A stretch of 54,737 nt of DNA, counting the filler, from Nitrospinae bacterium RIFCSPLOWO2_12_FULL_45_22 (GTDB lineage: Bacteria; 2-12-FULL-45-22), in the NCBI GenBank assembly GCA_001803565.1. It is 4 parts of 4 records of this genome, joined end to end, with 100 filler letters (N's around TTAATTAATTAA, not from the genome) between each part and the next. Parts side by side here need not be neighbours in the genome. Positions count along the whole stretch, not along the records: positions 1 to 15,107 come from MHDQ01000315.1; 3 more parts are not named here. The stretch is one strand, 5' to 3'. Position numbers and translations under genes: made by a program. Of this stretch, positions 1 through 42,654 are shown piece after piece. The notes beneath the pieces were generated by a model. The model had not been told where the DNA came from. It did not search any database and was given only the letters and a program-made list of their open reading frames with translations. The stretch's first letter is position 1, and each line of letters starts with the position of its first letter.

Positions 1-83
1 CTGATTAATAGCTATAAAAGTACGGGCGATTTTCCCGATATATACGAAAAGACACTTTCAGAAAAGGTACTGGGGCGCAAAGG

Positions 84-857
84 ATGACCAGGATAATCTT
101 AAAAAACAAGCCTCTTGTGGAGGCAATATTTGAGTTACGATGGGAACCACAGAAACAACAGGCAGATATTTATATAGATCCGAACTATAAATTATTAATT
201 GGGAAAATACATGATAAAGTTAGTAGCGAATATCCTTTCCTTGAACAATTACCTACTGCGACAATGCCCGATCAAATTGCAGGATACATCGTTCAATACC
301 GATTCAGAAAAGGCCAGGATAAATGGCCTCTTATTCAAATAGGCCCTGGAATTATTACTTTAAATGAGACTGATGGGTATGAATGGGATGATTTTCGAAG
401 TAGAAGCTCTCATGTGCTTGATACTATTTTTGGTGTATACCCAGATGCAGAAAATAACCTGAAGATAAATACATTAATACTGCGATATATTGATTCTATT
501 GATTTTGATTACGGAAAAAATGATATTTTCAGTTTTCTGAAAGAAAAAATGAAAATGGATGTAGAGCTATATGAAAGATTATTCGAAAATTCTGGAGTTA
601 CTAAGTTGCCTTTGGGATTTGATTTAAGATTTTCTTTCCCTTCTACAAAACCAAAAGGAGCAATGCACCTGCGTTTTGTCCGGGGAAAAAGGAAAGATAT
701 GGACTCTTTACTATGGGAAACACAGGTTCAATCAGTAGGAGATGATGCTCCTAAAGTCAGGGATGAAATTGTTACATGGATAGATGAGGCTCATAACTTA
801 ACAGATGATTGGTTTTTTAAAATAATAGATGGGGAATTACAAAGGAGATTCGAATGA
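84..857 (+). CDS. TIGR04255-family protein (function unknown)
   Basis: N-terminal LKNKPLVEAIFELRW, QYRF..., IQIGPG...NET.Y.W..F and LRYID motifs as recalled for this family; AT-rich. Confidence 0.75.
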   Translation: MTRIILKNKPLVEAIFELRWEPQKQQADIYIDPNYKLLIGKIHDKVSSEYPFLEQLPTATMPDQIAGYIVQYRFRKGQDKWPLIQIGPGIITLNETDGYEWDDFRSRSSHVLDTIFGVYPDAENNLKINTLILRYIDSIDFDYGKNDIFSFLKEKMKMDVELYERLFENSGVTKLPLGFDLRFSFPSTKPKGAMHLRFVRGKRKDMDSLLWETQVQSVGDDAPKVRDEIVTWIDEAHNLTDDWFFKIIDGELQRRFE

Positions 858-1546
858 ACCATTCACTATTGCCGCAAGATGTTACATCCAAAGATTATTT
901 AATTCCGCACGTACCTGCTGGAGCCTCAAATGTGGAATATGAAATGCACGAGGTATGGGAAAATAAGTTATCTAATTTGATCAGACGGGAACAATCAGAG
1001 AAGATTAGTTTAGATCTGATCCGTCTATATCTACCTTGGAAACAAATTTTTGAAGCCGATTCTTCTACGTGCCGACCGCATTTTGAGATAAAGAGGGAAA
1101 CATATCCAATTGAAGAAGTATCAGAGGACAAAAAAGTATTAAACATTACTTCGTATATCCGTGACCAATCAAATATTTGTTTTGCTCACCGACTTGCTAA
1201 TCGCCTTGAGTTCCTGGTTGAAGCTTCTAAGGAAGAGCATCCCGACGAAGTCGCAATCTTACTTGATTCATTAAGGAACTTTGTACGATTTCTTCAATCT
1301 GCGAGCAATCTAAATTATCCTGATGTTGTGCTGTCTCCATCTAAGAACATCCGAGCTCAATGGCGGACTGGGCCTAATCGGCATTTTGCAGCAGAATTCC
1401 TAACCACCGGTGATGCTAATTTTGTAATTTTTTCACCGGATCCAAAGCACCCGGAAAAAACCATAAGATTGTCTGGACTCGTCTCAGTTGATTCTTTAAT
1501 AGATACCGTGGAGCCCCACGGAGTGCTTGCTTGGTCTTCACGATGA
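854..1546 (+). CDS. Hypothetical protein, coupled to both neighbours
   Basis: 230-aa ORF; ATGA overlaps at 854-857 and 1543-1546. Confidence 0.75.
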   Translation: MNHSLLPQDVTSKDYLIPHVPAGASNVEYEMHEVWENKLSNLIRREQSEKISLDLIRLYLPWKQIFEADSSTCRPHFEIKRETYPIEEVSEDKKVLNITSYIRDQSNICFAHRLANRLEFLVEASKEEHPDEVAILLDSLRNFVRFLQSASNLNYPDVVLSPSKNIRAQWRTGPNRHFAAEFLTTGDANFVIFSPDPKHPEKTIRLSGLVSVDSLIDTVEPHGVLAWSSR

Positions 1547-1965
1547 AAGGCGACCTTATACCAGACCGCGATTACATATCCCGGTATTGCTCTGCGATGC
1601 AGTGTACAGAGGAGGGACAAGTCACAGGCGCTGCATTCCAGATCCGCCCGAGCGATAAATATTTATCCGTCAACTGGTTGGAGTTTCTATGCCTTGGAAA
1701 CCGGCAAGAAGAGATCCGAGAAGTTCGTAGAATCCTCAGTTCAAAGCTAACACTGGGCGCTAAAGCAAAAATCGCTGTTTTGAACGTAGGAAATATTCTT
1801 AACTATGTCCGCAGTCAGAGCCCAGATAGCAGAAATCTTAGCGTATTTCATGAGCCAGAAGAAAATGATCCCTCCCATAGCGGCATTTATGGCTTACAAT
1901 CTGAAGATCATCTGATCGCCGATCTGATAGCAGAAATAGTTCAGGAGACCTACCCAGCGCGATAG
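1543..1965 (+). CDS. Hypothetical protein, possible ADP-ribosyltransferase/RES-like fold toxin
   Basis: ATG at 1543 overlaps upstream stop; R..(AF)..LSV..DPSH pattern; fold is inferred. Confidence 0.55.
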   Translation: MKGDLIPDRDYISRYCSAMQCTEEGQVTGAAFQIRPSDKYLSVNWLEFLCLGNRQEEIREVRRILSSKLTLGAKAKIAVLNVGNILNYVRSQSPDSRNLSVFHEPEENDPSHSGIYGLQSEDHLIADLIAEIVQETYPAR

Positions 1966-2218
1966 TCCAATTAAAGTGCAGCCTGGGGGGCATATTATCG
2001 TAGTTCTTTATAGCAATTATTCTAATCAAAGAGTGAAGATTCCCGAAGGTAATCATTACGTGGCTAAGTCTGTTATAAAGTGAAGCTTACTTACGCGAAA
2101 GCTATACTCTATATATGGGGGGTAATAGCGGAAGGGGTTTCTATATGATTATGGACCCTACAGGTATAGTCGTCTGTTCTTATCTTGATTTGTTCATCAG
2201 ACAGCATCGTAAGATACC

Positions 2219-2398
2219 TTAAGGGTATAGCTTTAATCTTTTCCCTTCCCGCCACTGGTGATAATAATATGTGGACTTGCCGATTTTCTTTACTGAGATG
2301 CCCCCACGGGGGAGTTTCTTTATCTCTTCATCTATGCGGGTAAGCTCTCGAATAAAGAAGATATAATTTTCCTGTAGGGTCTTTTTTACCACGCTCAT
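2219..2398 (-). pseudogene. Truncated small basic protein (DUF6788-like)
   Basis: Manual translation MSVVKK...LPRGGISVKKIGKSTYYYHQWREGKRLKLYP*; apparent frameshift after WREGK. Confidence 0.45.
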
Positions 2399-2573
2399 TA
2401 ACTACATTTTAACTACAATTACCACGTTTGTAAATATCTGTAGTTATTCAGCCTTTTTCGATGCGCCAGAATAAGTCCCGATCACCCAAAAAGGCGGCAG
2501 AGAAGAAAAGGAAGAAGCACCCCGGTACACGAAAGCCAGCATTCCTGCCTGTGCCTTGGCAGACAGGAATGGA

Positions 2574-3179
2574 TTAGGCCAGGATATTTTTTAAAGGGAG
2601 GCGGGGTCGTGCCGAAGGGTGCTCATCGGCATAGCCAATAGTAAGCAAGGCATTAAGTATCATATGCTTGGGTAGACCCAGGATCTTCTGGATTACACTC
2701 CCCCTTATCCGGGCTACCCAACAACTCCCTAAACCCAACGCAGTAGCGGTTAGAAGCATATGCTCTATGGCAATTGAGGTATTGAACATCGCCTCAGGAA
2801 TAAATTTCTTTAATACCTCCCAATCCTCAGTATACTCCTCCTGAGGGTATCCTGCTAAGGCCGCAGGCGGTATAGCCCCTGCATCAACCAATTCCTGGAG
2901 TCGCTTATTAGTATCCCTCACAAAGGTTAGGAGATCAGAGCAACAGACAATTACTACCGGAGCTTGTTCGACAAACTTCTGATTGAAAGCCGCTTCCCTC
3001 AGTTTTGCTCTGGTATCGGGATCCGTAACTACACGGAATCTCCAGGGTTGCCTATTTACCCCCGATGGAGCCAACCTGGCTGATTCGAGAATCTGATTGA
3101 TAAGCTCCTCTGGCACTGGATCAGGTTTATACTTCCTGATACTCCTCCGCTTCTCAATGGCTTCTTTTACTGTCATCAT
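2574..3179 (-). CDS. Nitroreductase family protein
   Basis: RRSIRKY, APSGVNRQPW and LGLGSCWV motifs. Confidence 0.92.
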   Translation of the reverse strand: MMTVKEAIEKRRSIRKYKPDPVPEELINQILESARLAPSGVNRQPWRFRVVTDPDTRAKLREAAFNQKFVEQAPVVIVCCSDLLTFVRDTNKRLQELVDAGAIPPAALAGYPQEEYTEDWEVLKKFIPEAMFNTSIAIEHMLLTATALGLGSCWVARIRGSVIQKILGLPKHMILNALLTIGYADEHPSARPRLPLKNILA

Positions 3180-3270
3180 AATAGTTATCTCCTTATCTTG
3201 GGTAACGTCCCAGCTAAAGTAGTGGTGTACAGTTTAGTACATTTGGTGACTGAATGGCTACAAAAACTTT

Positions 3271-3315
3271 ATTTAAAGGACTGAGTAATCACCATTTAAA
3301 GGACTGAGTAATCAC
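3271..3315. repeat. 22-bp tandem duplication ATTTAAAGGACTGAGTAATCAC
   Basis: Identical copies at 3271-3292 and 3294-3315. Confidence 0.9.
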
Positions 3316-4239
3316 TTTCCCTTGATTGTCGAGGACGATTTGCAGGACAAAGGGGCGCCCGTGGTGGAGTCCAAATAGCCGGGTATTGAAGCGTAGATCA
3401 AAATATTCTACTATGTGCCTGTCTTCAGGATTCTCTACTCCATACTCTATTACTGGATAGCGGGCAAACCAGCGGTAAAGCTTCGCAGCATCTAATCTCT
3501 CAGCCGCGGCAATAAACCTATTGCTATTGGGATAAGGAAACCAACGAAAATCAAAATCCGCGTTCTGACCCAAATGGAGCCAGGTCTGATATATGCCGGT
3601 AGGAGTCTTTACCAAGCAGAGCCAGTTATAAGGGGTGAAGGGTTGAGGCAAGGCATCCAACTCCAACACCACTAGCTTCTTCTCCTGGCATATGTTTTTC
3701 AGCTTGTTCAACACCAGTCTATGATGAAAGGCAGCGGCACAAAGGTAGACGAAGAGAAGGAGCAAGGCTAGCCGACAAAATCTTTCTCCTCTTTGGCTTG
3801 TTAAACGGCTATAGATCAAGGGGGCAGCTACTAAAGCAGTAAATACTAGATCAATAATAAAGACATAATCCAGGACATAGCGCTTGTCGGATAAGGGATA
3901 AAAGATCATAGTCCCATAAGAGGTTATGAGGTCCAGTATAATATGGCTGGTCAGGCCTATACTACACAGGAAGGTTAGATACCAGAAGCGCTTTATATGA
4001 CTGAAGCGATAAAACAGGGTCGCTAATAACAAAGCAAATATAGGCAAGGCAACAAGAGAGTGGGTAATACCCCGATGATACAGGATATATGTCTGGAAGC
4101 CAAAAAAGGATAGGACAATGTCACTATCAGGGAATAGGGCGCTTAGCCAGAGGACCCGGGTGGCAGTCTTACCATATACTTGGCCCAGGCCAGCTCTGGC
4201 TATCAAGGCTCCGGTTAAGGCATGGGTGAGGTCATCCAT
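3289..4239 (-). CDS. Membrane-bound metal-dependent hydrolase (YdjM-like)
   Basis: MDxLTH, PDxD, HRGITHS, SHxxLD motifs; hydrophobic segments. Confidence 0.88.
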   Translation of the reverse strand: MDDLTHALTGALIARAGLGQVYGKTATRVLWLSALFPDSDIVLSFFGFQTYILYHRGITHSLVALPIFALLLATLFYRFSHIKRFWYLTFLCSIGLTSHIILDLITSYGTMIFYPLSDKRYVLDYVFIIDLVFTALVAAPLIYSRLTSQRGERFCRLALLLLFVYLCAAAFHHRLVLNKLKNICQEKKLVVLELDALPQPFTPYNWLCLVKTPTGIYQTWLHLGQNADFDFRWFPYPNSNRFIAAAERLDAAKLYRWFARYPVIEYGVENPEDRHIVEYFDLRFNTRLFGLHHGRPFVLQIVLDNQGKVITQSFKW

Positions 4240-5276
4240 CTCTCAAGCCCTCCACCTAACTGGCCACATGCCCCGCATATATCGGCTCCTTTACTCTCTC
4301 TAATCAAGGCTGTAATATTATGGTCCTGGAGCACCCGGTGAAAGGCCTCTACTGCCTCTCCCCGGGGGGCGCGATAGCCAGACCCAGGAAAATAGTTAAC
4401 GGGTATCAGGTTGACTTTACTCCTTAACCCTCTTAACAGGCCAGCTAGCCTATGGGCATCTTGCAAGGAGTCGTTGATACCTTCTATTAATACATACTGT
4501 ATAGTAATCCGTCGCCTCGGGGGCAAAGGATAACTCCTCAGTGTACGAAATAGAAGCTCTATAGGATTGCCTTTATTAACAGGCATAAGCTGCTCCCTTA
4601 TCTGATTAGTGGTGGCATTCAGAGAGATGGCCAGATTTACCGGGAGAGCCTCCTGAGCAAAGGTCTTTAGGGGATTAATAAGACCAACGGTAGATAAGGT
4701 AATCCTGCGGGGGGAAATAGCTAGTCCGTGCGGAGAGGTAATAATCCTTAATGCCTTTACTACATTATCATAATTGTCCAAAGGCTCACCCATCCCCATC
4801 AACACCAGATTAAATCTCTGTTTCTTCAGTTCTAGTAGGTCCTGAACCGCCAGTATCTGGTCTATAATTTCTGAAGCCTGCAAGTTTCTTATTAGCCCCT
4901 TTCTCCCGGTAAGGCAAAAAAGGCACCCTAAGCGACAACCTATCTGGGATGAGAGGCAGAGGGTACCGTGTCCCACCATTTTTATCCATACTGTCTCTAT
5001 TGTATAGCCATCATCTAGGCGGAAAGAAAACTTCTGGGAACCATCCCGGGATATCTTTTGGTCTGCCAATTCCAATCCGCTGATATAATATCTATCTTGC
5101 AATCGTTGCCGTAATTCTTTGGGGAGATTACTCATAAGATTTATATTGGTTACCCGTTTCACATAGAGCCAATCCCAGATTTGCTTTGCCCGATACGGTT
5201 CTTCAGAAAGGGATACCAGAGCGGCTTCTAGCTGCTGAAATTCCATATCTTTAATGTTAAGTTTATTTTTCTCCAT
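4215..5276 (-). CDS. rlmN: 23S rRNA m2A2503/tRNA methyltransferase RlmN
   Basis: SSQIGCRLGCLFC, MGMGEPLDN, C-terminal GACGQL. Confidence 0.95.
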   Translation of the reverse strand: MEKNKLNIKDMEFQQLEAALVSLSEEPYRAKQIWDWLYVKRVTNINLMSNLPKELRQRLQDRYYISGLELADQKISRDGSQKFSFRLDDGYTIETVWIKMVGHGTLCLSSQIGCRLGCLFCLTGRKGLIRNLQASEIIDQILAVQDLLELKKQRFNLVLMGMGEPLDNYDNVVKALRIITSPHGLAISPRRITLSTVGLINPLKTFAQEALPVNLAISLNATTNQIREQLMPVNKGNPIELLFRTLRSYPLPPRRRITIQYVLIEGINDSLQDAHRLAGLLRGLRSKVNLIPVNYFPGSGYRAPRGEAVEAFHRVLQDHNITALIRESKGADICGACGQLGGGLERWMTSPMP

Positions 5277-5288
5277 AGTGAGTTGTTA

Positions 5289-6461
5289 TTAGGCGGCTAA
5301 TAAGAATAGGCATTTCAAATATTCTGTCTCCGGGGCAGCCAGCAAGATCGGATGATCGGGTGACTGGTGGCCGTATGCTACGAGCCTAACAGCCCTCCCA
5401 GCCTTCTTAGCTGCCTTCAGTATAACATCCTGGAGCTGTCTCATGCCGATATGGTAAGAACACGAAGAGGTTACCAATATCCCGCCTGGCTTTAAGAGTT
5501 TTAGGGCTTGATAATTTATTTTTTCATAGCCTTTCAAAGCGGTTGGCAGACTCTTGCGGCTCTCGGCTAAGGAGGGCGGGTCGAGGATTATAGCATCAAA
5601 CCCTTTATTATCGCCGACCAGGTCTTCTATCCCCTGGAAGATATCCGCCCGGTAAAACTGACAGACACCGTCTAGGCCATTCAGCTCAGCATTAATCCTG
5701 GCTAGCTCCAGGGCCCTTTGAGAGCTATCTAGCCCTATAACTCTCCGGGCGCCGGCGGCTGCGGCATGTAGCGCCCAGGCACCAGTATAACAAAAGCAGT
5801 CCAGAACCTCTCCCTGGGATACATACCGCTGGAGCTTAAGGCGGTTTTCGCTCTGGTCGAAAAAGAAACCGGTCTTCTGCCCCTCAAGAATATCTACCTG
5901 GAACCGCAATCCGTCTTCCTGGATAACTATTGGTCCAGAAAGTAGACCCTTCGCTACCTTTTTTTCTAGGGGAAGACCTTCTAATCTCCGAACCGATACA
6001 TCATTCCGCAAGACGATAACCCTGGGAATAAAAACGGACTCCAGGGCGGCCAGGATAACATCTTTCCTTATCTCCATACCTAAGGTATGGAACTGGACTA
6101 CCAGGCAATCATTAAATTTGTCTACTATTAATCCGGGTAATAGATCGCCTTCACTATAGACCACCCGTAAAGAATCACGCCTCGGGTAGACCTTCTGACG
6201 ATATTCCCAGGCCGCTGCAATCCGGCGCATAAAGAAGGCCCCATCAATATCTTCTCGGTACCGGGTAAGGATTCTAACCGCGATAAGGGAGTTGGGATTT
6301 ACATACCCTTTTCCAATGAACCGGCCCTGGGCATCCAGAACCTCTACTATCTCGCCGGGAGAATATTCTTTTAGCCGTCCCTGGACCTCATTGCTAAATA
6401 CCCAGGGATGGCCCTGTTTTATACGCTGGTCGCAGCCGGGTTGTAGATAAACCGAAGACAT
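5289..6461 (-). CDS. RlmI-like class I SAM-dependent rRNA methyltransferase
   Basis: PUA GHPWVF, GQKTGFFFDQ, LDPP motifs; ATG at 6461 chosen over TTG at 6494. Confidence 0.88.
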   Translation of the reverse strand: MSSVYLQPGCDQRIKQGHPWVFSNEVQGRLKEYSPGEIVEVLDAQGRFIGKGYVNPNSLIAVRILTRYREDIDGAFFMRRIAAAWEYRQKVYPRRDSLRVVYSEGDLLPGLIVDKFNDCLVVQFHTLGMEIRKDVILAALESVFIPRVIVLRNDVSVRRLEGLPLEKKVAKGLLSGPIVIQEDGLRFQVDILEGQKTGFFFDQSENRLKLQRYVSQGEVLDCFCYTGAWALHAAAAGARRVIGLDSSQRALELARINAELNGLDGVCQFYRADIFQGIEDLVGDNKGFDAIILDPPSLAESRKSLPTALKGYEKINYQALKLLKPGGILVTSSCSYHIGMRQLQDVILKAAKKAGRAVRLVAYGHQSPDHPILLAAPETEYLKCLFLLAA

Positions 6462-6555
6462 ATTAGGTATCTTCCTTCTTTTTTGATTTGGCAAAAGCCA
6501 ATATTTTCCTTACAATATTGGGAACTATTTATCAAAAGTAAGACTATAAACCCTT

Positions 6556-6728
6556 GTAACTGTTTAGCCAACTAAAGTCTTTGTAGATATTCAGCCACCA
6601 AGGACGCTAAGTTCCACTAGAAAGGGTTCCAGTGGCCAAGGGGTCAAGGATTCTAGAACCCTCGAATCCTTTTTTGCATTGAAAGAAATTTAGTGCCCTT
6701 TCGTGTTACTTCGTGGCTAAAACGTTAC
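6556..6728. mobile_element. MITE-like composite palindrome (GTAAC-TGTTTAGCC terminal repeat family)
   Basis: Begins GTAACTGTTTAGCCAACTAAAGT and ends GGCTAAAACGTTAC; near-identical 5' end at 34575 and 54352. Confidence 0.75.
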
Positions 6729-6750
6729 CTAAGCTAAAATATAATATACC

Positions 6751-7998
6751 ATGGAAAGGACTGACAGCAAGGCCGGTGAGAAGACCCGCACTGCCCAACT
6801 ATCGGCTGAGGAGCAAGATTTTTTTTATCGCTTGCCCCTCGTCCCCCTTGATCCTTATACTAACCTGCGCTATATAGCCGATTTTGTAGCCGCGGTAGAG
6901 AATCTTAAATGCCCCCCGGGTGGCCTGATCCTGGACCTGGGGGCAGGGGCTTGCTGGGTATCAGAATGGTTAGTCAGGTTAGGGTTCCGGACTGTATCCC
7001 TGGATATTTCTTACGGTACCCTGGAGATAGGTAAAAAGCGGTTTTTAGATAGCCATATTCACGGCTCTTTTGTTGCCGGTGATATCGAAGCCCTACCTTT
7101 TATGGCTAATACCTTTGACGGTATTATTTGCCTGGCTACCCTGCATCATGTCCCTGATATCCAGAAAGCCTTAGAAGAATTGCACCGGGTATTAAGGAAT
7201 TCTGGTAGTGTAGTATTAATTGAGCCAGGGGAAGGGCATTCCCAGGCCCCGGCGTCCAGGGTGGCTATGGAGCGGTTCAATATTTTAGAGCAAGATATAT
7301 TAATAGATGATATATATAAAAAAGGACAGGAGGCAGGTTTTAAGCGCTTCTGGGTAGTACCATTTATCTCTCCTGAAATACAGTTGGATAATGAAAGTTG
7401 GCACGCACTGCTAACCTTGCCCTATTCTCCTTCCAGGATATGGGCCTGGGCTAAAAGGCTCTATTACCTGTTCTACTCTTTGCTGCCATTACCCAAAGCC
7501 CGTCCCATTAAGCAAGGCCGGTGGTTGAGGGCCCATTTACTTCATCGGCTTATAATTAATACCAAGACCCATCCTATCCTGGTATTACGCAATGAAGACC
7601 GATGCCTGGATAGTCGAGTACCGGGGGTGTTAAGGGCTGATATCCAACTCATTAGCGCACCAGGTAAAGTGTCTACAGGAGACGATTTCTGCCTTAGGCT
7701 GCGGATAAAAAACACCGGCGATACCCTTTGGCTGAGCCAGAGGAATCCTTACGGCGGATTTGTTACTTTAGGGGGGCAGTTGTGCGATGCCCAGGGGAGG
7801 GTGCTGATTAGAGACTTTGTTAGAATAGACCTACCTAAGGATATAGCGCCTTGTGAAGAAATAACCCTGGATTTCTCTATCAAGGTACCTGGAGAGACCG
7901 GAGTTTATCAATTAAAAATAGATATGGTGGATGAGTTGGTAACCTGGTTTGAGGCGCGAGGCTCCAACCCATTAATAATACCGCTCCAGGTAGAGTAA
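6751..7998 (+). CDS. Class I SAM methyltransferase with C-terminal Ig-like (NBR1-like) domain
   Basis: ILDLGAG motif I, LHHV; C-terminal KNTGDTLW...PG.Y....DMV.E..TWF. Confidence 0.8.
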   Translation: MERTDSKAGEKTRTAQLSAEEQDFFYRLPLVPLDPYTNLRYIADFVAAVENLKCPPGGLILDLGAGACWVSEWLVRLGFRTVSLDISYGTLEIGKKRFLDSHIHGSFVAGDIEALPFMANTFDGIICLATLHHVPDIQKALEELHRVLRNSGSVVLIEPGEGHSQAPASRVAMERFNILEQDILIDDIYKKGQEAGFKRFWVVPFISPEIQLDNESWHALLTLPYSPSRIWAWAKRLYYLFYSLLPLPKARPIKQGRWLRAHLLHRLIINTKTHPILVLRNEDRCLDSRVPGVLRADIQLISAPGKVSTGDDFCLRLRIKNTGDTLWLSQRNPYGGFVTLGGQLCDAQGRVLIRDFVRIDLPKDIAPCEEITLDFSIKVPGETGVYQLKIDMVDELVTWFEARGSNPLIIPLQVE

Positions 7999-8061
7999 AA
8001 AATTGTCCTTTTGCTCCTTGGTTTAGTCTTTCATATAGATTATAATTGTAAGACAATCCGG

Positions 8062-8121
8062 GTAACAGTTTACGGGGTTCAGTTAACAGGGTTCAGAAAA
8101 AGACTTACGGTGAACAATTAC
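8062..8121. repeat. GTAAC-ended dispersed repeat; inverted copy at 14575-14618
   Basis: GTAACAGTTTACGGGGTTCAGTTAACAGGGTTCAG-AAAAAGACTT closely matches the reverse complement of 14575-14618. Confidence 0.8.
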
Positions 8122-8147
8122 AATACTTGTGTTGGCGGGTTGAAGAG

Positions 8148-9470
8148 ATGTTGATCCTAAAGAGTGGCACAAAAGGCTTTCAGGAAAGACTGGGAAAGAT
8201 AGTACGGCGGATGGAGCTAGCCTGGGCCGAAGGGGTGGAACAGACTGTACAAGAGATTATCCAGGCGGTTAAAGCCAGAGGTGATGAGGCATTAATAGAA
8301 TATACCCACAGGTTTGACCATTGCCCCTTAACCAAAGAAGAGCTGCTGGTAAGCAAAAAAGAGATAGCCCAGGCATACCAGGCTGTGGATGATAAGACAT
8401 TAGGGGCATTACAATTAGCCGCCCAGCGGATAAAAGAGTTCCATCTCCAACAAAGATACCAGGCTTCTTCCTGGATAAAGCAAGAGGAGCAAGGGGTCTG
8501 GGCCGGTCAATTAATCCAGCCCTTAAAAAGGGTAGGGGTCTATGTGCCCGGGGGTAAGGCAGCCTATCCTTCATCGGTGCTTATGAATATTATTCCAGCC
8601 AAGGTAGCTGAGGTGGAGGAAATTATTTTGTGTACCCCGCCTAGCCCGGATCATCAGAATAAAATTAATCCCTATGTCATGGTAGCAGCCGATCTAGCGC
8701 AAGCCAACCGCATCTTTAAGCTTGGTGGTGCCCAGGCTATTGCGGCCATGGCCTTTGGCACTGAGACCGTACCTAAGGTGGATAAGGTTGTTGGTCCAGG
8801 TAATATCTATGTTGCAGCCGCCAAAAAAATGGTCTATGGAGAAGTAGGTATTGATCTAATAGCTGGCCCCAGTGAGATAGTTATCCTGGCCGATCAGACG
8901 GCTGACCCAGACCTTATTGCCGCTAATTTACTGGCTCAGGCAGAGCATGATGAGCAGGCCTTAGTGGTATTGATTACGGACGCAGAAGACCTGGCGCAGG
9001 TAGTAGTAGCGAGAATTGAAGCCCAAAAGGCAAGACTGGGGCGACAGGATATTATCTACCACTCATTGAACCGATGGGGAACCGTCTTCCTGACCGATAA
9101 TTTAGAGCAGGCCCTGGACCTGTCAAACCAGATCGGTCCGGAGCACCTCCTCCTTATGGTCAAAGAGCCCTGGGCCATGTTGGCCGGGGTTAAGAATGCT
9201 GGTGCAGTCTTTCTGGGTAATTATGCTCCGGTAGCACTGGGGGACTATCTGGCCGGCCCTAATCATGTGCTCCCTACGGGAAATACAGCCCGTTTCTTTT
9301 CTCCTTTAGGGGTCTATGATTTCATTAAACGGACAAACTTTGTCTATGCCCCCAGCCAGACCAGCCGCAATCTGATAGAGAAAGCTGCGATCTTAGCCCG
9401 GCTGGAAGGGCTCAATGCCCATGCCCATTCCCTTGAGATGGGAAACAAAACTAATAAAGGGGAAGGATAA
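8148..9470 (+). CDS. hisD: Histidinol dehydrogenase
   Basis: YVPGG, GPGNIYV, AGPSE, QAEHD, GPNHVLPT; ATG at 8148. Confidence 0.97.
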   Translation: MLILKSGTKGFQERLGKIVRRMELAWAEGVEQTVQEIIQAVKARGDEALIEYTHRFDHCPLTKEELLVSKKEIAQAYQAVDDKTLGALQLAAQRIKEFHLQQRYQASSWIKQEEQGVWAGQLIQPLKRVGVYVPGGKAAYPSSVLMNIIPAKVAEVEEIILCTPPSPDHQNKINPYVMVAADLAQANRIFKLGGAQAIAAMAFGTETVPKVDKVVGPGNIYVAAAKKMVYGEVGIDLIAGPSEIVILADQTADPDLIAANLLAQAEHDEQALVVLITDAEDLAQVVVARIEAQKARLGRQDIIYHSLNRWGTVFLTDNLEQALDLSNQIGPEHLLLMVKEPWAMLAGVKNAGAVFLGNYAPVALGDYLAGPNHVLPTGNTARFFSPLGVYDFIKRTNFVYAPSQTSRNLIEKAAILARLEGLNAHAHSLEMGNKTNKGEG

Positions 9471-9475
9471 AATAG

Positions 9476-10063
9476 ATGGTGAGAAAAGCTGGTATCAACC
9501 GAACTACTAAAGAGACCCGGATAGATATTCAATTGGATATTGATGGGCAAGGAAATCATCAGATTGCTACGGGGGTACCATATTTTGACCATATGCTGGC
9601 TCAGATAGCACAGCATGGTCTATTTGATTTACAGATAGAGGGGCGGGGTGATTTAGAGATTGACTATCACCATACCGTGGAAGATGTTGGCATCGCCTTG
9701 GGCCAGGCCTTCCAGCAGGCATTAGGCAATAAAGAAGGAATAGAGCGTTTTGGCCAGGCAACGGTTCCATTAAATGAAGCCCTGATTTCCCTGGTTTTAG
9801 ATATCAGTGGCAGGCCCTTCCTGGCCTTTAATGTCCCGGGGCTGCGGGGTAAAATAGGAAATTTTGATGCCGAATTGATCCGGGAATTCTTCCAGGGCTT
9901 TGTCAGCACTAGCGGCATCACTCTCCATATAAACCTCCAGTATGGTAATAATTTGCACCATATGGCCGAAGCAATATTTAAGGCCTTTGCCTGGGCCCTG
10001 AGGCAAGCTGTTACTATTAATCAGCGCATAAAGGGGGTCCCGTCAACTAAGGGTGAGTTGTGA
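9476..10063 (+). CDS. hisB: Imidazoleglycerol-phosphate dehydratase
   Basis: RTTKET, HHTVED, HHMAEA, PSTKG. Confidence 0.97.
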   Translation: MVRKAGINRTTKETRIDIQLDIDGQGNHQIATGVPYFDHMLAQIAQHGLFDLQIEGRGDLEIDYHHTVEDVGIALGQAFQQALGNKEGIERFGQATVPLNEALISLVLDISGRPFLAFNVPGLRGKIGNFDAELIREFFQGFVSTSGITLHINLQYGNNLHHMAEAIFKAFAWALRQAVTINQRIKGVPSTKGEL

Positions 10064-10150
10064 AATCCAGGGTTCAAAATCCAGATGCCAAAATATTTGA
10101 GCTTTGAGCTTTGACATTTGGGCCTTTATATCTGTTGTGAAGGGATAAAG

Positions 10151-10759
10151 ATGATAGCTATTATTGACTATGGCATGGGCAACCTCAGGAGTGTCCAGAA
10201 GGGAGTTGAAAAAGTAGGAGCCCAGGGCATTATTACCAGTAACAAGCAGGATATTTTTGATGCCCGGGCGGTGATATTACCCGGGGTAGGTTCTTTCCGG
10301 GAATGCATGAATAATTTGTTACAATTGGATTTGATAGACCCCTTACTAAGGGTCATAAGAGCGGGCAAGCCCTTTCTGGGGATTTGTCTCGGGCTCCAAA
10401 TTCTTTTCAGTACCAGTGAAGAATTTGGTCTCTGCCAGGGTTTAGATCTTATAAAAGGTAAGGTAATAAGATTTCCTGCGATGGATGGGCTAAAGATACC
10501 CCATATGGGCTGGAACCAAATCCATATCAAGAAGAGTACCCCTTTGCTGGCCGATATTCCTGAAGGTGCTTATGTCTATTTTGTCCATTCTTATTATCCG
10601 CAGCCTGAGCAGGAGGAATGTATCGCTACGACAACGGTTTATGGACAGGAATTTGTCTCAGCCATCTGGCAAGATAATATCTTTGCTACCCAGTTCCATC
10701 CCGAGAAGAGCCAGGAGATAGGCATCCAGATACTAAAAAACTTTGCTAGTATAGACTAA
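10151..10759 (+). CDS. hisH: Imidazole glycerol phosphate synthase glutaminase subunit
   Basis: DYGMGNL, PGVG, GICLG, PHMGWN, QFHPEKS; ATG at 10151. Confidence 0.97.
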   Translation: MIAIIDYGMGNLRSVQKGVEKVGAQGIITSNKQDIFDARAVILPGVGSFRECMNNLLQLDLIDPLLRVIRAGKPFLGICLGLQILFSTSEEFGLCQGLDLIKGKVIRFPAMDGLKIPHMGWNQIHIKKSTPLLADIPEGAYVYFVHSYYPQPEQEECIATTTVYGQEFVSAIWQDNIFATQFHPEKSQEIGIQILKNFASID

Positions 10760-10794
10760 ATTATTGTGGTCATATTTTAGCAACAGCCACCATT

Positions 10795-10853
10795 TGCAGG
10801 GGCAGGCATCTCTGCCTGCCTTTAAATGGGCCGACACAGAGGTCGGCCCCTAC
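10795..10853. repeat. GTAG-type REP-like doublet
   Basis: TGCAGGGGC...hairpins...GCCCCTACA; same organisation as 38651 and 45347. Confidence 0.65.
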
Positions 10854-10866
10854 ATCAGATAAAATT

Positions 10867-12078
10867 TTGGTTACTTTAGGTGATATAAAAAAGGCCCAGG
10901 AAAAACTCCGTCAAGTGATCTATCCCACACCCATTATGCCGGCCAAGAGCTTCAGTCAGCACAAAAAGCTACGGGTTTATCTCAAGTTAGAAAATCTTCA
11001 AAAGACCGGTTCATTCAAATTGCGGGGGGCCTTTAATAAACTCTCGCAGCTTGATAAACAGCAGCGGGAAAGAGGAGTAATTGCGGCCTCGGCCGGAAAC
11101 CATGCCCAGGGTGTAGCTTATGCCAGTAGCCATTTTCATACTAGAGCAGTCATTGTCATGCCCGAGCGAACTCCTATTACCAAAATGATGGCTACTAAGG
11201 CCTATGGTGCCGAGATAATCCTTTATGGTAGTTGCTTCAATGATTCCTATGATCGGGCATTGAAATTAGCAGAGGAAACGGGAATGATCTTTATCTCACC
11301 TTTTGACGATGATGATATTATTGCTGGTCAGGGTACTATTGGTTTAGAAATTATCCAGCAACTACCCAAGGTAAGGACAGTCATCGTACCGGTCGGTGGT
11401 GGTGGGCTAATAGCTGGTCTAGCCATTGCCTTAAAAGAACATAACCCCACCATTAAGATCATAGGCGTAGAGGCTAAAGGTGCTGCCTCTATGTATGAGT
11501 CTCTCCAGAAAGGATATATATGCGAGCCACTTACTATAACAAAGACTATTGCTGATGGGATAGCAGTTAACCGGCCCGGAGAAAAGACCTTTCCTATTAT
11601 CCAAAAATTGGTAGACGAGATGGCCTTAGTAGAAGAAGAGGAGATAGCACGGGCTATCCTGAGCTTCATAGAAGAAGAGAAGTTGCTGGTGGAAGGGGCT
11701 GGGGCAGTCCCGCTGGCTGCTTTACAAGAGAAAAAATTGGCCATAGAAGAAGGGGATGTGGTGCTGGTGGTTAGTGGGGGAAACATTGATGTCAATACCA
11801 TTGCCCGCATTATCGAGAAAGGCCTGGTTAAGAGTGGGCGGCTACTACGGGTCTCTCTGGAATTGGAAGATGTCCCTGGAACCCTGAACAAGATTACCTC
11901 TCTGATAGCCGAGGAGCAAGCCAATATCCTCCATATTATCCATGACCGCCTAAGCAAAGACCTGCCCGTCGGCATAACTAAACTAGAGCTGGACCTAGAA
12001 ACCCGGGGTAAAGAACACTCCAAAGAGGTCATTACCGCTTTAAAGGCCAAAGGTTACCTCCCTAAATTGATCCAGTAA
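10867..12078 (+). CDS. ilvA: Threonine ammonia-lyase with C-terminal ACT domain
   Basis: KLENLQKTGSFKLRGA PLP lysine, SAGNHAQG, GGGG, SGGN. Confidence 0.92.
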   Translation: MVTLGDIKKAQEKLRQVIYPTPIMPAKSFSQHKKLRVYLKLENLQKTGSFKLRGAFNKLSQLDKQQRERGVIAASAGNHAQGVAYASSHFHTRAVIVMPERTPITKMMATKAYGAEIILYGSCFNDSYDRALKLAEETGMIFISPFDDDDIIAGQGTIGLEIIQQLPKVRTVIVPVGGGGLIAGLAIALKEHNPTIKIIGVEAKGAASMYESLQKGYICEPLTITKTIADGIAVNRPGEKTFPIIQKLVDEMALVEEEEIARAILSFIEEEKLLVEGAGAVPLAALQEKKLAIEEGDVVLVVSGGNIDVNTIARIIEKGLVKSGRLLRVSLELEDVPGTLNKITSLIAEEQANILHIIHDRLSKDLPVGITKLELDLETRGKEHSKEVITALKAKGYLPKLIQ

Positions 12079-12099
12079 TCATTGTGGTTATAATTATAT

Positions 12100-12519
12100 A
12101 TGGAGATAATATTGAGGGCGCATCATGTCTTATGCATCCAGGGTTTCCGGGGTAAGGGGTACTCAGAGGAATTTGTAGCCAATTTTGCTTACATTGTAGA
12201 GCGACTGAATACCCATAAGGATACGCAGATTGAGCTGATAGCTGGCCCTGATGATATCTGCCGGTGCTGTCCTTATCTTGGCGAAGGTGGCTGCAAACGA
12301 TCCAGGAATGAGCCTGAAAAGTTCTCTCAACAGATAGATACCCAGGTCTTCCAACGACTGGGTTTAGGGCCTGGGACCAGACTTTCCTGGACAGAAGTTT
12401 TGGAGCAGATCAAAGCCAGGATAGAATCTAAAGACCTTGTAAGTATCTGTTGGGGCTGCCCCTGGATTTTCTACAATTATTGCTTGATAGGACTGAGAAA
12501 TCTCAAGGATAGCCCATGA
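12100..12519 (+). CDS. DUF1284 family Cys/His-rich protein
   Basis: LRAHHVLC..GF.GKGYS, DDIC..CP, C..C.W. Confidence 0.85.
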   Translation: MEIILRAHHVLCIQGFRGKGYSEEFVANFAYIVERLNTHKDTQIELIAGPDDICRCCPYLGEGGCKRSRNEPEKFSQQIDTQVFQRLGLGPGTRLSWTEVLEQIKARIESKDLVSICWGCPWIFYNYCLIGLRNLKDSP

Positions 12520-13844
12520 AAAACCTGCCGCCTATCAGACCGGATAAAGTCCATGAGGTCTTAAGCCGAAGTATCTTAGTAGATGGTTTCGATCTAGTGT
12601 GGGACCAGGAGAAGAGTCATGGCTCCTATTTATATGATGCTCGGCAGGGCCGCGAATTCCTGGATTTTTTTACCTTCGTTGCCTCTTTGCCCCTCGGCTA
12701 TAACCACCCAAAGATGCATGATGAGGCCTTCCAGAAGAAGCTACTCAAGGCCGCCCTGGCTAAGCCTGCTAATCCAGAGGTATATACTGTAGAGTATGCC
12801 GAGTTTGTCCATACCTTCCAACGAATTGCTGGCCAGGGGCTATTCCAACACTATTTTTTTATTGATGGTGGCACGTTGGCCGTTGAGAACGCCTTGAAAG
12901 TCGCTTTTGATTGGAAGCTCCGAAAGAATCTCAAGGCGTGTATCAAGGATAAAGGCACGCAGGTTATCCATTTCCAGCAGGCCTTCCATGGCCGATCGGG
13001 ATATTCCATCTCTCTTACCAACACCTTTGATCCGAGAAAGACTATCTATTTTCCTATCTTTAATTGGCCCAGGATAACTAACCCTAAATGCCTCTTCCCT
13101 TTGGCAGGGGATAATTTGAGCCGGGTTATAGAGGCAGAAAGGCTGGCCTTGGCCGAAATTGATAAAGCCATAAGAGATAATCCCCACGATATTGCCGCTA
13201 TAGTCATCGAACCTATCCAGGGAGAGGGTGGTGATAATCATTTCCGGGGGGAATTCCTGAGAGAGCTCAGGCGCATAGCTGATGAATATGATATCCTGTT
13301 GATCTTTGATGAGGTACAGACCGGTATAGGTATCACGGGCAAGATGTGGGCCTTCCAGCATTTCGCTATGCAGCCCGATGTTATTGCCTTTAGCAAAAAG
13401 ACCCAGGTGGCTGGCATTGCCTCTACCACTCGGATTGATGAGGTGGATAATGTCTTCAAAGTCCCCAGCCGCATCAGCTCCACGTTTGGTGGTAGTCTGG
13501 TAGATATGGTCAGGAGTACTCGTTATCTGGAGATAATAGAAGAAGACAAGCTGATAGATAATGCTCGGGACATAGGTAACTATCTGCTGCAAGGGTTACA
13601 AAAGATGGCCCAGGAAGCCTGGCCCCAGATAAGTAATGTCCGGGGGAGGGGTTTATTCATTGCCTTTGATCTGCCTGCAACTGAAGAGCGGGATAAGCTA
13701 CGAAATATCCTCTATAATCAGGGCCTATTATTATTGGGCTGCGGAGAAAGGAGCATTCGCCTCCGCCCTCCTCTTACCCTGAGCCGAGCCGAAGCTGCGC
13801 AGGGACTCGAGATCATTAACCTGGGATTAAATAAAATGTATTAG
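12516..13844 (+). CDS. lat: L-lysine 6-aminotransferase (class III PLP)
   Basis: AVENALKVAFDWK, FHGRSGY, EPIQGEGGD, DEVQTG, FSKKTQV. Confidence 0.88.
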   Translation: MKNLPPIRPDKVHEVLSRSILVDGFDLVWDQEKSHGSYLYDARQGREFLDFFTFVASLPLGYNHPKMHDEAFQKKLLKAALAKPANPEVYTVEYAEFVHTFQRIAGQGLFQHYFFIDGGTLAVENALKVAFDWKLRKNLKACIKDKGTQVIHFQQAFHGRSGYSISLTNTFDPRKTIYFPIFNWPRITNPKCLFPLAGDNLSRVIEAERLALAEIDKAIRDNPHDIAAIVIEPIQGEGGDNHFRGEFLRELRRIADEYDILLIFDEVQTGIGITGKMWAFQHFAMQPDVIAFSKKTQVAGIASTTRIDEVDNVFKVPSRISSTFGGSLVDMVRSTRYLEIIEEDKLIDNARDIGNYLLQGLQKMAQEAWPQISNVRGRGLFIAFDLPATEERDKLRNILYNQGLLLLGCGERSIRLRPPLTLSRAEAAQGLEIINLGLNKMY

Positions 13845-13936
13845 CTATATAAGAGTTGTCAGAGGTCGGCTGCCAGGGGTCAGGGAAAGACTGTCTGAAA
13901 AAAACTGATCCCTGAACCCTGCGAACTGTTACTTTG

Positions 13937-14386
13937 CTATTCGCCTGTGGTTGGTTCTTGATCAGAGCGGATGATGGGCCGAGGCCTCATAGCCCGTAAG
14001 AGCTCTAATGCCCGCAAATACTCTAGTTCATCATAACACTCTTTACAATTCTTGCCTGTGGAATATACGATGGCTTCTTTACCTTGTGAGTCTCTGATGT
14101 TCCAGGTACCGATATGCTCCTGGGCAAATGCCTGCTCTTTCATCTTCTGGGGGAGTTCTTTGTCGGTTATCAATAGTTGGATAGTTACATCACTTATACC
14201 AGCTTTTTTCAAATTAATAATCTCTCCCACAGTCAAACCACCACTATCCTCTGAAGCTACTTTCTCTGGCTGGGCTGATGGCTGATCAGGGGGTATACCG
14301 GACGACTGAGCCAGGGAGATACCAATACCCAGGCCGAGTGTCATCAATATACTCACCAAACTAATACCGTATACCAACCGTTCCAT
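13937..14386 (-). CDS. Hypothetical exported protein
   Basis: Signal-peptide-like N-terminus; GGAGG RBS. Confidence 0.7.
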   Translation of the reverse strand: MERLVYGISLVSILMTLGLGIGISLAQSSGIPPDQPSAQPEKVASEDSGGLTVGEIINLKKAGISDVTIQLLITDKELPQKMKEQAFAQEHIGTWNIRDSQGKEAIVYSTGKNCKECYDELEYLRALELLRAMRPRPIIRSDQEPTTGE

Positions 14387-14427
14387 GTAACACCTCCTCT
14401 ACTTTCTTACGCGGGATTAAACCAGAG

Positions 14428-14564
14428 ATAACCGTTCACCCATTTATTCCATCGTATTGTCATTCTGAGCCGAAGTCCTGAGCAAAGCGAAGGAGCAAGC
14501 GAAGAATCTTTCTCCTTTGAGACCCTTCGCTCTGTTCAGGGTGACAGGCCCAGTGAACGGTTAC
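14428..14564. mobile_element. Nested palindromic element
   Basis: Perfect TAACCGTTCAC/GTGAACGGTTA ends around a GTCATTCTGAGC...CAGGGTGAC hairpin (also at 52465-52534). Confidence 0.75.
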
Positions 14565-14776
14565 CAAAAATTAAAGTCTTTTCCTGAACCCGGTTAACTG
14601 AACCCCGTGAGCTGTTACGAGATTTTCTACTTACTTTATCGGCACAAATTATTTTTTCTTGAATTTTACAGAGATGTTCCGGCAAGGATGGCCCCACCTA
14701 CCTACTTCCCGGACAAAATAACCCAATCAATTCTATCTTAACTTTGTCAGATTAAAGTATCTAGGCTTAGATAGAA

Positions 14777-14950
14777 CCGCAAAGACGCAAAGGACGCGAA
14801 GCCTGTCTGCCAGGACACAGGCAGGAATGACCAGGGAAGATGAACTTACCAGGATTCCAGGGACCAAGGATTCGAGAAACTATTTCTCGAACCCTGGCAT
14901 CCTTGAATCCTCTTCTTATAAAATCTTTGCGCTCTTAGCGCCTTTGCGGT
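14777..14950. repeat. Nested palindrome with ACCGCAAAG...CTTTGCGGT arms
   Basis: Inverted arms enclose CCTGTCTGCC..CAGGCAGG (inverted copy at 2544) and a GGATTC..GAATCC periodic hairpin (related one at 6623). Confidence 0.7.
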
Positions 14951-15107
14951 TGATTTAATAATGCCTGGTAGCAAGCTAAACAATCTGTTAGGCGCTACAA
15001 GGACTATTCAGTTAATGTGTCAATGTCAAGCTATTGGTCTGGTTAGATAATTTTTACCGGGCAAGGGGCGTGAGTCTGGATAAGTCTTAATTCTGAGGGT
15101 GGAAAGG

Positions 15108-15207
15108 NNNNNNNNNNNNNNNNNNNNNNNNNNNNNNNNNNNNNNNNNNNNTTAATTAATTAANNNNNNNNNNNNNNNNNNNNNNNNNNNNNNNNNNNNN
15201 NNNNNNN
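15108..15207. other. Artificial contig linker
   Basis: N-run with central TTAATTAATTAA. Confidence 0.98.
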
Positions 15208-15270
15208 ACCCGCTAACGCCAAAAATTTCGGTTGCCAGAATGACTTTCTCTGGTTATCTTTTTTAATCAT

Positions 15271-15729
15271 ATGGAAAATCTTAATTCAATACTGGCAAAA
15301 TATGGCTGGGGAAAAATGGCCCTTATCCCTATTCTCCAGGACCTTCAAGAAGAGTATGGCTGGCTCTCTGAAGAGTTATTAGATGAAGTGGCGCAGAGAT
15401 TGCGGGTTTCTTCTTCGGAGATATTCAGCATGGTAACATTTTATAAATCTTTCAGACTGAAGCCCGTGGGCAAGTACCTCATAACTGTTTGTCTGGGCAC
15501 TGCCTGTCATGTAAGGGGGGCGCCCGACGTACTGGATGAAATTAAGAGAAGGAGCGGGATAAAAGATGGCGAGACTACTAAGGATAATCTCTTCACTCTG
15601 GAAACGGTAAACTGTGTTGGGGCATGTGCCCTTGGCCCCATTGTTATAGTTAATGATGAATATCACGGCTTGATGAGCAAAGTCAAGGTAGAAAAGCTAA
15701 TTGACCAGCTTTATGAAAAGAATCAATAA
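15271..15729 (+). CDS. NuoE/HydC-like [2Fe-2S] subunit
   Basis: CLGTACHVRG, CVGACALGP. Confidence 0.92.
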   Translation: MENLNSILAKYGWGKMALIPILQDLQEEYGWLSEELLDEVAQRLRVSSSEIFSMVTFYKSFRLKPVGKYLITVCLGTACHVRGAPDVLDEIKRRSGIKDGETTKDNLFTLETVNCVGACALGPIVIVNDEYHGLMSKVKVEKLIDQLYEKNQ

Positions 15730-26099: not shown

Positions 26100-26100
26100 G

Positions 26101-26200
26101 NNNNNNNNNNNNNNNNNNNNNNNNNNNNNNNNNNNNNNNNNNNNTTAATTAATTAANNNNNNNNNNNNNNNNNNNNNNNNNNNNNNNNNNNNNNNNNNNN
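26101..26200. other. Artificial contig linker
   Basis: N-run with TTAATTAATTAA. Confidence 0.98.
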
Positions 26201-42379: not shown

Positions 42380-42479
42380 NNNNNNNNNNNNNNNNNNNNN
42401 NNNNNNNNNNNNNNNNNNNNNNNTTAATTAATTAANNNNNNNNNNNNNNNNNNNNNNNNNNNNNNNNNNNNNNNNNNNN
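42380..42479. other. Artificial contig linker
   Basis: N-run with TTAATTAATTAA. Confidence 0.98.
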
Positions 42480-42654
42480 ATTTCCTGGCCTCTTGGCTTC
42501 CTAATAAAAAAGAAGGCAAAAAATAGGCATAATACGTAACTGTATTTATGAAATGAAGCACTAAGGTAAATTATTCCTCAGCTTTGCATTTTACGCTTTC
42601 TTAATGTCTTCGTGTTTTCGTGACAGAGAAGAGTTGTTCGGGTGAACGCTTACT

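Follow-up and report, generated by a model that had tools for sequence, protein, structure and literature searches.

SecB-like toxin-antitoxin-chaperone (TAC) systems were reportedly described by Bordes in 2011. In these modules a toxin-antitoxin (TA) pair is accompanied by a third, chaperone gene, and one report covers HigBA-, MqsRA- and HicAB-chaperone modules (10.1101/2024.02.24.581848); another presents CmdTAC as a toxin-antitoxin-chaperone anti-phage system with an mRNA ADP-ribosyltransferase (ART) (PMC11618068). Here, we describe a three-gene locus of related layout at the start of a 54,737-nucleotide (nt) stretch of DNA from Nitrospinae bacterium RIFCSPLOWO2_12_FULL_45_22 (GenBank assembly GCA_001803565.1), which we call the window. 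Its three open reading frames (ORFs), ORF1 of the TIGR04255 family, ORF2 and ORF3, lie on the plus strand and are joined by two ATGA stop/start overlaps that can be read directly from the sequence, as the initial annotation of this DNA had stated (Table 1). With a probability of roughly 0.6, we consider the locus to be a tripartite TA-like module whose third component is not a SecB-like protein.

The locus resembles CmdTAC in having three genes, a putative effector with an ART fold, a putative antitoxin that would neutralise it and a third protein with a proposed role in antitoxin control, as well as in its defence context. Unlike in CmdTAC, the third component belongs to TIGR04255, is encoded by the first gene, and has its putative handle at the N-terminus of the antitoxin. 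Alignment of the TIGR04255 profile with two SecB sequences gave an hhalign probability of 0.2%, and Pfam returned no SecB match, so that the SecB likeness suggested for ORF1 in the initial annotation finds no counterpart in its sequence. CmdTAC features a capsid trigger, ClpP-type degradation and an RNA target; any counterpart of these in the present system would be hypothetical. PADLOC lists CmdTAC as PD-T4-9, and none of the three proteins matched a family in PADLOC-DB 2.0.0 at E ≤ 1. Because of the non-SecB third protein, the N-terminal handle and the lack of a PADLOC match, we do not count the module among TAC or CmdTAC members. As in the SecB-like TAC systems, one accessory family seems to serve several unrelated TA families via an added antitoxin segment, the toxins here being MazF, PIN, a ~175-aa family and the ART-like ORF3. 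The accessory family is a different one, however, and the added segment of ~90 aa is N-terminal instead of a C-terminal ChAD.

ORF3 also stands apart from described ART-fold proteins. Unlike KptA/Tpt1 (PDB 9ld3, 7yw2 and 7kw9), with which it shares 4–8% identity, it lacks the N-terminal RNA-binding lobe and any Pfam match and measures 140 aa instead of ~180 aa. It falls outside the toxin families of DarT-DarG, RES-Xre/MbcT-MbcA and ParT-ParS, its conserved residues being R-S-E47-H112, and differs from these pairs further in an antitoxin with no macrodomain, Xre or DUF2384 match and in the presence of a third gene. Similarity to TreTu/TriTu, an Rhs toxin with its immunity protein (PDB 7zhl and 7zhm), scores within the range that a common alpha+beta arrangement can reach by chance (Med17C ties at 7.8), and the free-standing ORF3 has no secretion or Rhs context. 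A literature search on three-gene TA systems brought up no paper on this architecture among the matches listed, although the 25 accessory clusters in Dataset S1 of PMC8832971 could include a related one; a search by family name found no paper in the library searched that names TIGR04255.

ORF3 and its predicted partner

ORF3 matches no entry in the family libraries searched (Pfam, NCBIfam and PADLOC). A word-indexed search returned 520 homologues, and an exhaustive search with a profile of the family (A1) recovered 1879 representatives, counted at 50% identity, at E ≤ 1e-3, including 988 at E ≤ 1e-10 and 166 at E ≤ 1e-30. Nearly all of the best 150 matches are free-standing proteins of ~140 aa. 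In the Atlas, ORF3 gave a possible lead to DUF6098 (0.91, 168 shared features).

The AlphaFold model of ORF3 (pLDDT, the predicted local distance difference test score, 94.6) shows a split beta-sheet ART fold. Judged from their titles, about 30 of the first 39 entries in a structure comparison are ART-fold proteins, comprising Tpt1/KptA, DarT, RES/MbcT, ParT and classical ADP-ribosylating toxins. The names listed include CC0527, AvrPphF ORF2, VPA0770, TreX, DarT, Tne2, Scabin and PltA, followed by pertussis toxin, pierisin, Xre-RES, MbcT, LT, diphtheria toxin and ParT. As each score alone is middling, our fold assignment relies on the consistency of this list. Foldseek weakly agrees, with KptA as its best match (E 0.02), and found nothing in the PDB at E ≤ 0.001 for the model of either ORF3 or ORF2. 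Searches of PDB sequences were likewise without result for ORF3 alone and for the ORF2 profile (A2), and the best chain for the A1 profile had an E of 0.13; neither profile has a sequence relative in the PDB. The nearest fold is the NAD+-binding lobe of KptA/Tpt1: ORF3 aligns to chain residues 86–180 or 109–216, that is, to the C-lobe only. With no PF01885 match at E ≤ 1 and no N-terminal lobe, it does not belong to KptA/Tpt1, and Pfam places it in neither the RES (PF08808) nor the DarT (DUF4433) family. Of the ART/RES-like character ascribed to ORF3 in the initial annotation, the ART-type fold is thus upheld by the model, and membership of the RES family is not supported by Pfam.

The catalytic triad of ARTs, H-Y-E or R-S-E, is distributed over strands beta-1, beta-2 and beta-5, with the glutamate of R-S-E on beta-5. 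Among 144 diverse members of the ORF3 family, the best-kept residues are S42 (143), H112 (141), F32 (140), E47 (139), W45 (137) and R14 (134), of which E47 comes after beta-2. The motifs noted earlier in ORF3 (SRY, AF..LSV and DPSH) are real and coincide with the conserved family columns S13-R14-Y15, A31-F32, L41-S42-V43 and D109-P110-S111-H112. Judging from the model, ORF3 therefore represents a family with the ART fold whose conserved residues depart from the canonical set.

ORF2 is a two-part protein. Residues ~95–230 are conserved (50–76% identity), and their confident model places three helices before a five-stranded sheet and two after it; the C-domain motif P.V.LSP..NI.AQW of the initial annotation corresponds to the conserved family columns P156..I166..W170. 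Residues 1–85 are variable and modelled with low confidence, the pLDDT being below 50 over residues 1–33 and 45–85. Type III chaperones, AvrPphF ORF1 and ExsC, appear lower in the structure list of ORF2 and are a lead, not proof.

Multimer prediction supports binding between the ORF2 C-domain and ORF3. The complex of ORF2 residues 88–230 with ORF3 reached an ipSAE interface score of 0.91 (0.91, 0.90 and 0.91 in individual runs), compared to 0.00 for the best of three controls; of 157 solved complexes 116 attained this mark, as did 2 of 215 mismatched pairs. The runs agreed in 100% of contacts, with a partner pLDDT of at least 93. On ORF3, the predicted interface comprises residues 17–36, 69–75, 92–94 and 120–131.

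The ORF2 homologue of some Gammaproteobacteria has an additional winged-helix domain at its C-terminus (HTH_Crp_2, MarR; locus L010 821–1750, protein P0210), which would give the putative neutraliser a DNA-binding domain that the ORF2 of the window lacks.

TIGR04255 and the toxin slot

ORF1 is matched by NCBIfam TIGR04255 over model positions 2–252 of 252 (133.6 bits, with the curated cut-off at 30; E 1e-38), which bears out the earlier family assignment; a search of the whole genome with TIGR04255 points to the same place, and in the Atlas, which has no structure model for it, ORF1 falls into TIGR04255 clusters only. Pfam contains nothing significant for ORF1 (best E 0.086, below the cut-off), and no helix-turn-helix (HTH) or other DNA-binding match.

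To survey its operons, metagenome contigs were scanned with the window ORF1, yielding 34 loci with 45–100% identity. Only the window's own contig and an identical contig, L110, combine it with the ORF2 C-domain and ORF3. At all other loci, a window-type TIGR04255 gene is followed by a middle gene of 123–143 aa and then by a different third gene, encoding PemK/MazF in four cases, PIN in four, and members of one family of 173–187 aa in 13. Since MazF or PIN is the third gene in operons of the window's TIGR04255 subtype, position 3 can be regarded as a toxin slot and position 2 as an antitoxin slot. This equivalence, drawn from sequence comparison, supports the earlier assignment of ORF2 as antitoxin and ORF3 as effector.

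The N-terminal part of ORF2 is related to the middle proteins of these sister operons. Its residues 1–92 match them in BLAST at E values of 5e-7 to 1e-4 and score 43.6 bits against a hidden Markov model (HMM) built from 24 middle proteins with the window copy and L110 left out, whereas 993 scored shuffles gave 9.5 bits at most. The N-modules have the motif D-x-S-S-x-x-P-[RH]-x-E-I-K-x-E-T in common. None of the ORF2 proteins from the common triads described below matches this model, and a step in guanine-cytosine (GC) content falls at the joint between N-module and C-domain. As the N-module goes with the TIGR04255 subtype and the C-domain with ORF3, we regard the ORF2 of the window as a chimera. 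At the level of sequence, the N-module is what ties the antitoxin to TIGR04255.

TIGR04255 operons of similar layout occur in Pseudomonadales, where a sample of 401 genomes contains the family in 17, at 22 places. Nearly all of these genes precede a middle gene of 105–259 aa and then a third gene. One operon type (type I) combines an HTH_3 middle protein with a third gene of ~272 aa that has no family name. In another type, the third genes of 105–161 aa are distant relatives of ORF3 (hhalign 88.9%, E 2.4e-6); four of them retain the arginine (or lysine) and the serine in three cases and the histidine in all four.

Two families of third genes were noted beside these comparisons. The ~272-aa type is found at L087, L088, L089, L092, L095, L099 and L106, with HTH_3 in all three middle proteins scanned (L088, L089 and L092), and its third genes have no Pfam match and no hhalign relation to A1, A2 or TIGR04255. 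The 173–187-aa family, at L113–L115, L118, L119, L122, L123, L126, L129 and L138–L141, also lacks a Pfam match and is a candidate new toxin family; hhalign relates it neither to A1 nor to the type-II third genes, and gives 49% over 41 columns against the ~272-aa family.

Conservation, defence context and competing explanations

To assess conservation, we gathered 80 loci from genomes with a relative of ORF3, spread over Thermodesulfobacteriota, Gammaproteobacteria, Planctomycetota, Nitrospirota, Chloroflexota, Bacteroidota, Verrucomicrobiota and other groups. At 75 loci the gene immediately before ORF3 codes for an ORF2 homologue, and of the five exceptions three are truncated by the end of a contig; in nearly all loci the two genes overlap at stop and start or are separated by a short gap. 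ORF2 and ORF3 are thus adjacent, co-oriented, small and conserved together, as is typical of a type II pair. A jackhmmer search from the window ORF1 found no TIGR04255 at these loci, which proved to be a false negative: the upstream cluster c2 (271 aa, 46 loci) is TIGR04255 according to both NCBIfam and hhalign (99.7%). NCBIfam recognises the family in 47 of 66 upstream ORFs tested and a six-frame HMM search adds five loci, so that the complete triad, with TIGR04255 directly upstream of ORF2-ORF3, is present in 52 of the 80 loci, across many phyla. The conservation of the triad is thereby established.

In nine loci, the first place is taken by a ~220-aa protein, c3, which has no family match and aligns to TIGR04255 with an hhalign probability of 16% over 150 columns. 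Loci of Dehalococcoidia and some Latescibacterota have no first gene and an ORF2 of 127–165 aa that corresponds to the C-domain alone, with up to three copies of the pair in one Dehalococcoidia locus. The length of the N-terminal extension of ORF2 follows this division: it has a median of 91 aa (range 45–138, 48 copies) downstream of TIGR04255 and of 116 aa (nine copies) downstream of c3, and is present in all 57 copies preceded by either gene. Among 19 copies with neither gene in the gene set, 11 have an extension of at most 39 aa and are C-domains alone; five do have TIGR04255 according to the six-frame HMM, and three, at the related loci L064, L074 and L075, have a long extension. Clusters of extensions never mix upstream classes, which is weak evidence alone since relatives share both features. 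The Dehalococcoidia chromosomes L053, L054, L059 and L076 carry as many as three copies of the two-gene version within 5 kb, and between these lie a 466-aa gene, itself repeated, and an ORF matching enoyl-CoA hydratase models.

The loci lie in defence-rich surroundings. We collected 188 flanking genes (two on each side, at least 120 aa) and searched 110, from 50 loci, against PADLOC; 39 of the 110 matched at E ≤ 1e-5 and 26 with at least 100 bits, in 21 of the 50 loci. The matches include BrxL and BrxA (BREX), DrmA (DISARM), type I, IIG and III restriction-modification, CBASS cyclase, HamB (Hachiman), Hma, NsnA/PD-T4-2 and PDC-S01/S02/S39. As a control, 42 ordinary genes of the window gave six generic matches and none at 100 bits or more; since this control stems from another genome, the contrast, and with it the enrichment in defence islands that the initial annotation had proposed to look for, is indicative only. 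ORF3 homologues with 54–81% identity occur in Thermodesulfobacteriota, Planctomycetota, Gammaproteobacteria and archaea; within the collection searched, the source phylum is represented by only two genomes. The family is rare in viral contigs, with one distant relative (26% identity), and in plasmids, with two distant Rhizobium matches in which the relative is a lone "hypothetical protein".

We propose that ORF3 acts as an effector that would use NAD+, through its ART fold, to modify or deplete a cellular target and so stop growth, a nucleic-acid end or NAD+ itself being the likeliest target. The C-domain of ORF2 (residues ~95–230) would bind ORF3 and hold it inactive, with the flexible N-module (residues 1–92) as a handle recognised by ORF1. 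ORF1, as a third component that may serve many toxin families, would stabilise or monitor the neutraliser through this handle, by analogy with the SecB-like chaperones of TAC systems and CmdTAC, and its loss or titration, for example by a phage product, would free the toxin. A much wider reading can be offered only tentatively, and we lean against it: that TIGR04255 is a widespread non-SecB partner that holds a transferable N-terminal antitoxin handle and turns ordinary TA pairs (those of MazF, PIN, the ART-like family and two or more unnamed toxin families) into three-part infection-sensing systems, that a handle swap has been caught here, and that ORF3 is a new ART branch with histidine for glutamate, acting on nucleic-acid ends like Tpt1/KptA.

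Several observations weigh against the tripartite interpretation. In ORF3, the beta-5 place, assigned by strand order and not by superposition, is occupied by H112 and not by a catalytic glutamate, so the ART triad is incomplete, and as this histidine replaces the glutamate of R-S-E, catalysis by ORF3 is unproven. The predicted interface omits R14, S42 and H112, and for this reason a block of the active site by ORF2 is not shown. Longer, fused or polymorphic-toxin forms of ORF3 were not found, which is weak evidence. Most type II antitoxins have a DNA-binding domain, and Pfam finds none in the ORF2 of the window. For TIGR04255, a role as chaperone is suggested by analogy only: the family has no known fold, no PDB relative below E 0.05, whether searched for by ORF1 itself or by its family profile (A3), and no likeness to SecB. 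ORF1 is not needed by the core pair, because pairs of ORF2 C-domain and ORF3 occur without TIGR04255. The exact combination in the window is rare, being confined to its own contig, L110 and one ORF2 cluster at 97%, and could have arisen by recent recombination, its function being presumptive. Finally, the downstream neighbours in the window are housekeeping genes, and the upstream side lies beyond the contig end.

The locus might instead be an ordinary two-gene TA pair, formed by the ORF2 C-domain and ORF3, in which TIGR04255 is a co-transcribed regulator or dispensable accessory and not a partner of the antitoxin, comparable to omega in omega-epsilon-zeta, PaaR in paaR-paaA-parE or MazG with mazEF. 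The 11 C-domain-only copies without TIGR04255 fit this explanation, as does the position of TIGR04255 as first gene, which regulators also occupy in known tripartite systems; PMC8832971 lists third genes of such a kind. It is nonetheless unlikely, since TIGR04255 has no DNA-binding match, the middle protein carries its own HTH_3 in other TIGR04255 operons, and the N-extension is never missing behind TIGR04255 or c3. That the type of extension changes with the upstream gene fits protein-protein recognition better, although kinship confounds this point. The absence of the toxin-ART glutamate, together with the RNA-modification and housekeeping genes downstream in the window, could instead mean that ORF3 is no toxin and acts as a Tpt1/KptA-like enzyme on nucleic acids or metabolites, with ORF2 as a subunit, in RNA repair or NAD+ metabolism. 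We think this improbable: ORF3 lacks the N-terminal lobe of Tpt1 and a PF01885 match, MazF or PIN fill the same slot in sister operons, the distribution across phyla is patchy with multiple copies in Dehalococcoidia, the flanks are rich in defence genes, and the downstream genes of the window are on the opposite strand.

A reversal of roles, in which TIGR04255 is harmful and ORF3 inactivates ORF1 or ORF2 in a type VII-like manner, as an enzymatic antitoxin or as a modifier, would agree with TIGR04255, to which no activity has been assigned, being the constant member of operons with differing third genes. With the classic toxins MazF and PIN among these third genes, however, one unchanging first gene would require enzymatic antitoxins of several unrelated kinds, and the ORF2 C-domain and ORF3 persist as pairs without it, which leaves very little room for this explanation. 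The least credible account is a chance juxtaposition, a recent recombinant without joint function. The restriction of the exact combination to the window's own contig and L110 and the GC step inside ORF2 would agree with it, but all three frames are intact with every family-invariant residue kept, both overlaps are ATGA, the same architecture with another TIGR04255 subtype recurs in the 52 triads, and DNA contigs from at least 18 runs, which belong to 16 studies, contain the module in near-identical form. We retain the tripartite TA-like module as the best explanation.

The locus, its surroundings and wider meaning

The window joins at least four contigs (C315, C317, C318 and C319) of one metagenome-assembled genome (3.67 Mb, 321 contigs, 85% complete, GC 0.451) with 264 N in total; features spanning the regions near 15107–15300, 26100–26200 and 42380–42600 are discontinuous in nature. 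As positions 1–15107 are a single contig, the module begins 84 nt from a contig end. We place the start of ORF3 at its ATG and not at an upstream TTG (1531), because homologues begin with MKGD.

Table 1. Coordinates of the module and its features in the window
Feature	Position	Strand	Remarks
ORF1	84..857	+	257 aa; TIGR04255 family, window subtype "W"; first gene of the module
ATGA overlap, ORF1 stop/ORF2 start	854..857	+	direct reading; AAGGAG 8 nt upstream
ORF2	854..1546	+	230 aa
ORF2 N-module, residues 1–92	854..1129	+	putative handle matched to TIGR04255 subtype; low confidence and probably flexible in the model
ORF2 C-domain, residues 95–230	1136..1546	+	conserved ORF3 partner; putative neutralising domain
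ATGA overlap, ORF2 stop/ORF3 start	1543..1546	+	direct reading
ORF3	1543..1965	+	140 aa from ATG; ART-fold protein by model; putative toxin/effector
R14 codon	1582..1584	+	strand beta-1; candidate active-site residue; invariant in A1
S42 codon	1666..1668	+	strand beta-2, LSVNW; candidate active-site residue; invariant in A1
H112 codon	1876..1878	+	start of beta-5, PSHSGI; at the R-S-E Glu place (strand order, DSSP of the model); invariant in A1
Repeat element, downstream copy	2066..2159		brackets the module; upstream copy just beyond the contig end

GC content rises along the module from 0.348 in ORF1 to 0.379 in the N-part and 0.431 in the C-part of ORF2 and to 0.466 in ORF3, compared to 0.466 in the remaining contig. 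The AT-richness attributed earlier to all three genes is thus only partly borne out. Downstream, the minus strand encodes a nitroreductase, YdjM, RlmN and a PUA-methyltransferase, so the described convergence with a core block holds within the contig, while the trailing pseudogene was not confirmed: the sole ORF there (2222–2398, minus, 59 aa) has no Pfam and no plasmid match. Scans for promoters and terminators around the module gave results no better than shuffles. Two small contigs covering 565–859 and 1255–1455 come from libraries labelled metatranscriptomic and are marked "probably DNA"; none of the listed holders of the module is RNA-derived.

Contig L110 is identical to window positions 1–2373 but for one base and extends 655 nt further upstream. 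From window position 2374 on, the sequence of L110 (3029–3166) is unrelated, which marks either the right edge of a mobile segment or an assembly chimera. The additional sequence contains a second copy of the repeat element (L110 480–550), 189 nt before the start of ORF1. The 30-nt core of the downstream copy (2092–2121) matches L110 521–550 at 28 of 30 positions, and the match extends to ~57 nt. A third copy, at 5146–5254 of contig C240 of the same genome, has both arms, the left one shared with the upstream copy and the right one with the downstream copy. Sequencing depth doubles over the repeat, and the upstream copy is also seen in a contig from another sample. The element measures ~57–85 nt, and this organism has three or more copies of it; Rfam gave no match, and RNA folding gave no stable structure (z-score 0.31). 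It may mark an inserted cassette, as an att-like site or a repeated regulatory element.

Two further observations concern other parts of the material. Radical-SAM genes of the window at 39695–40801 and 45473–46459 match PADLOC pVip (viperin-like) with 66–74 bits, probably through generic radical-SAM likeness. SecB is near-identical in L143 (the genome of L066, in a record titled Leclercia tamurae) and L144 (Pseudomonas fungipugnans); the "Leclercia" genome measures 7.1 Mb, and its record may be mislabelled or mixed.

TIGR04255, a family without assigned function, gains a testable role from this analysis, as the constant member of three-gene antitoxin/toxin operons. If our interpretation is true, it would be a second, independent accessory solution beside the SecB-like TAC chaperones. 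The third-gene families of 173–187 aa and ~272 aa are candidate new toxins, and ORF3 introduces a large unnamed family with a predicted ART fold and unusual conserved residues. The chimeric ORF2, in turn, provides a natural domain map of which part should bind which partner.

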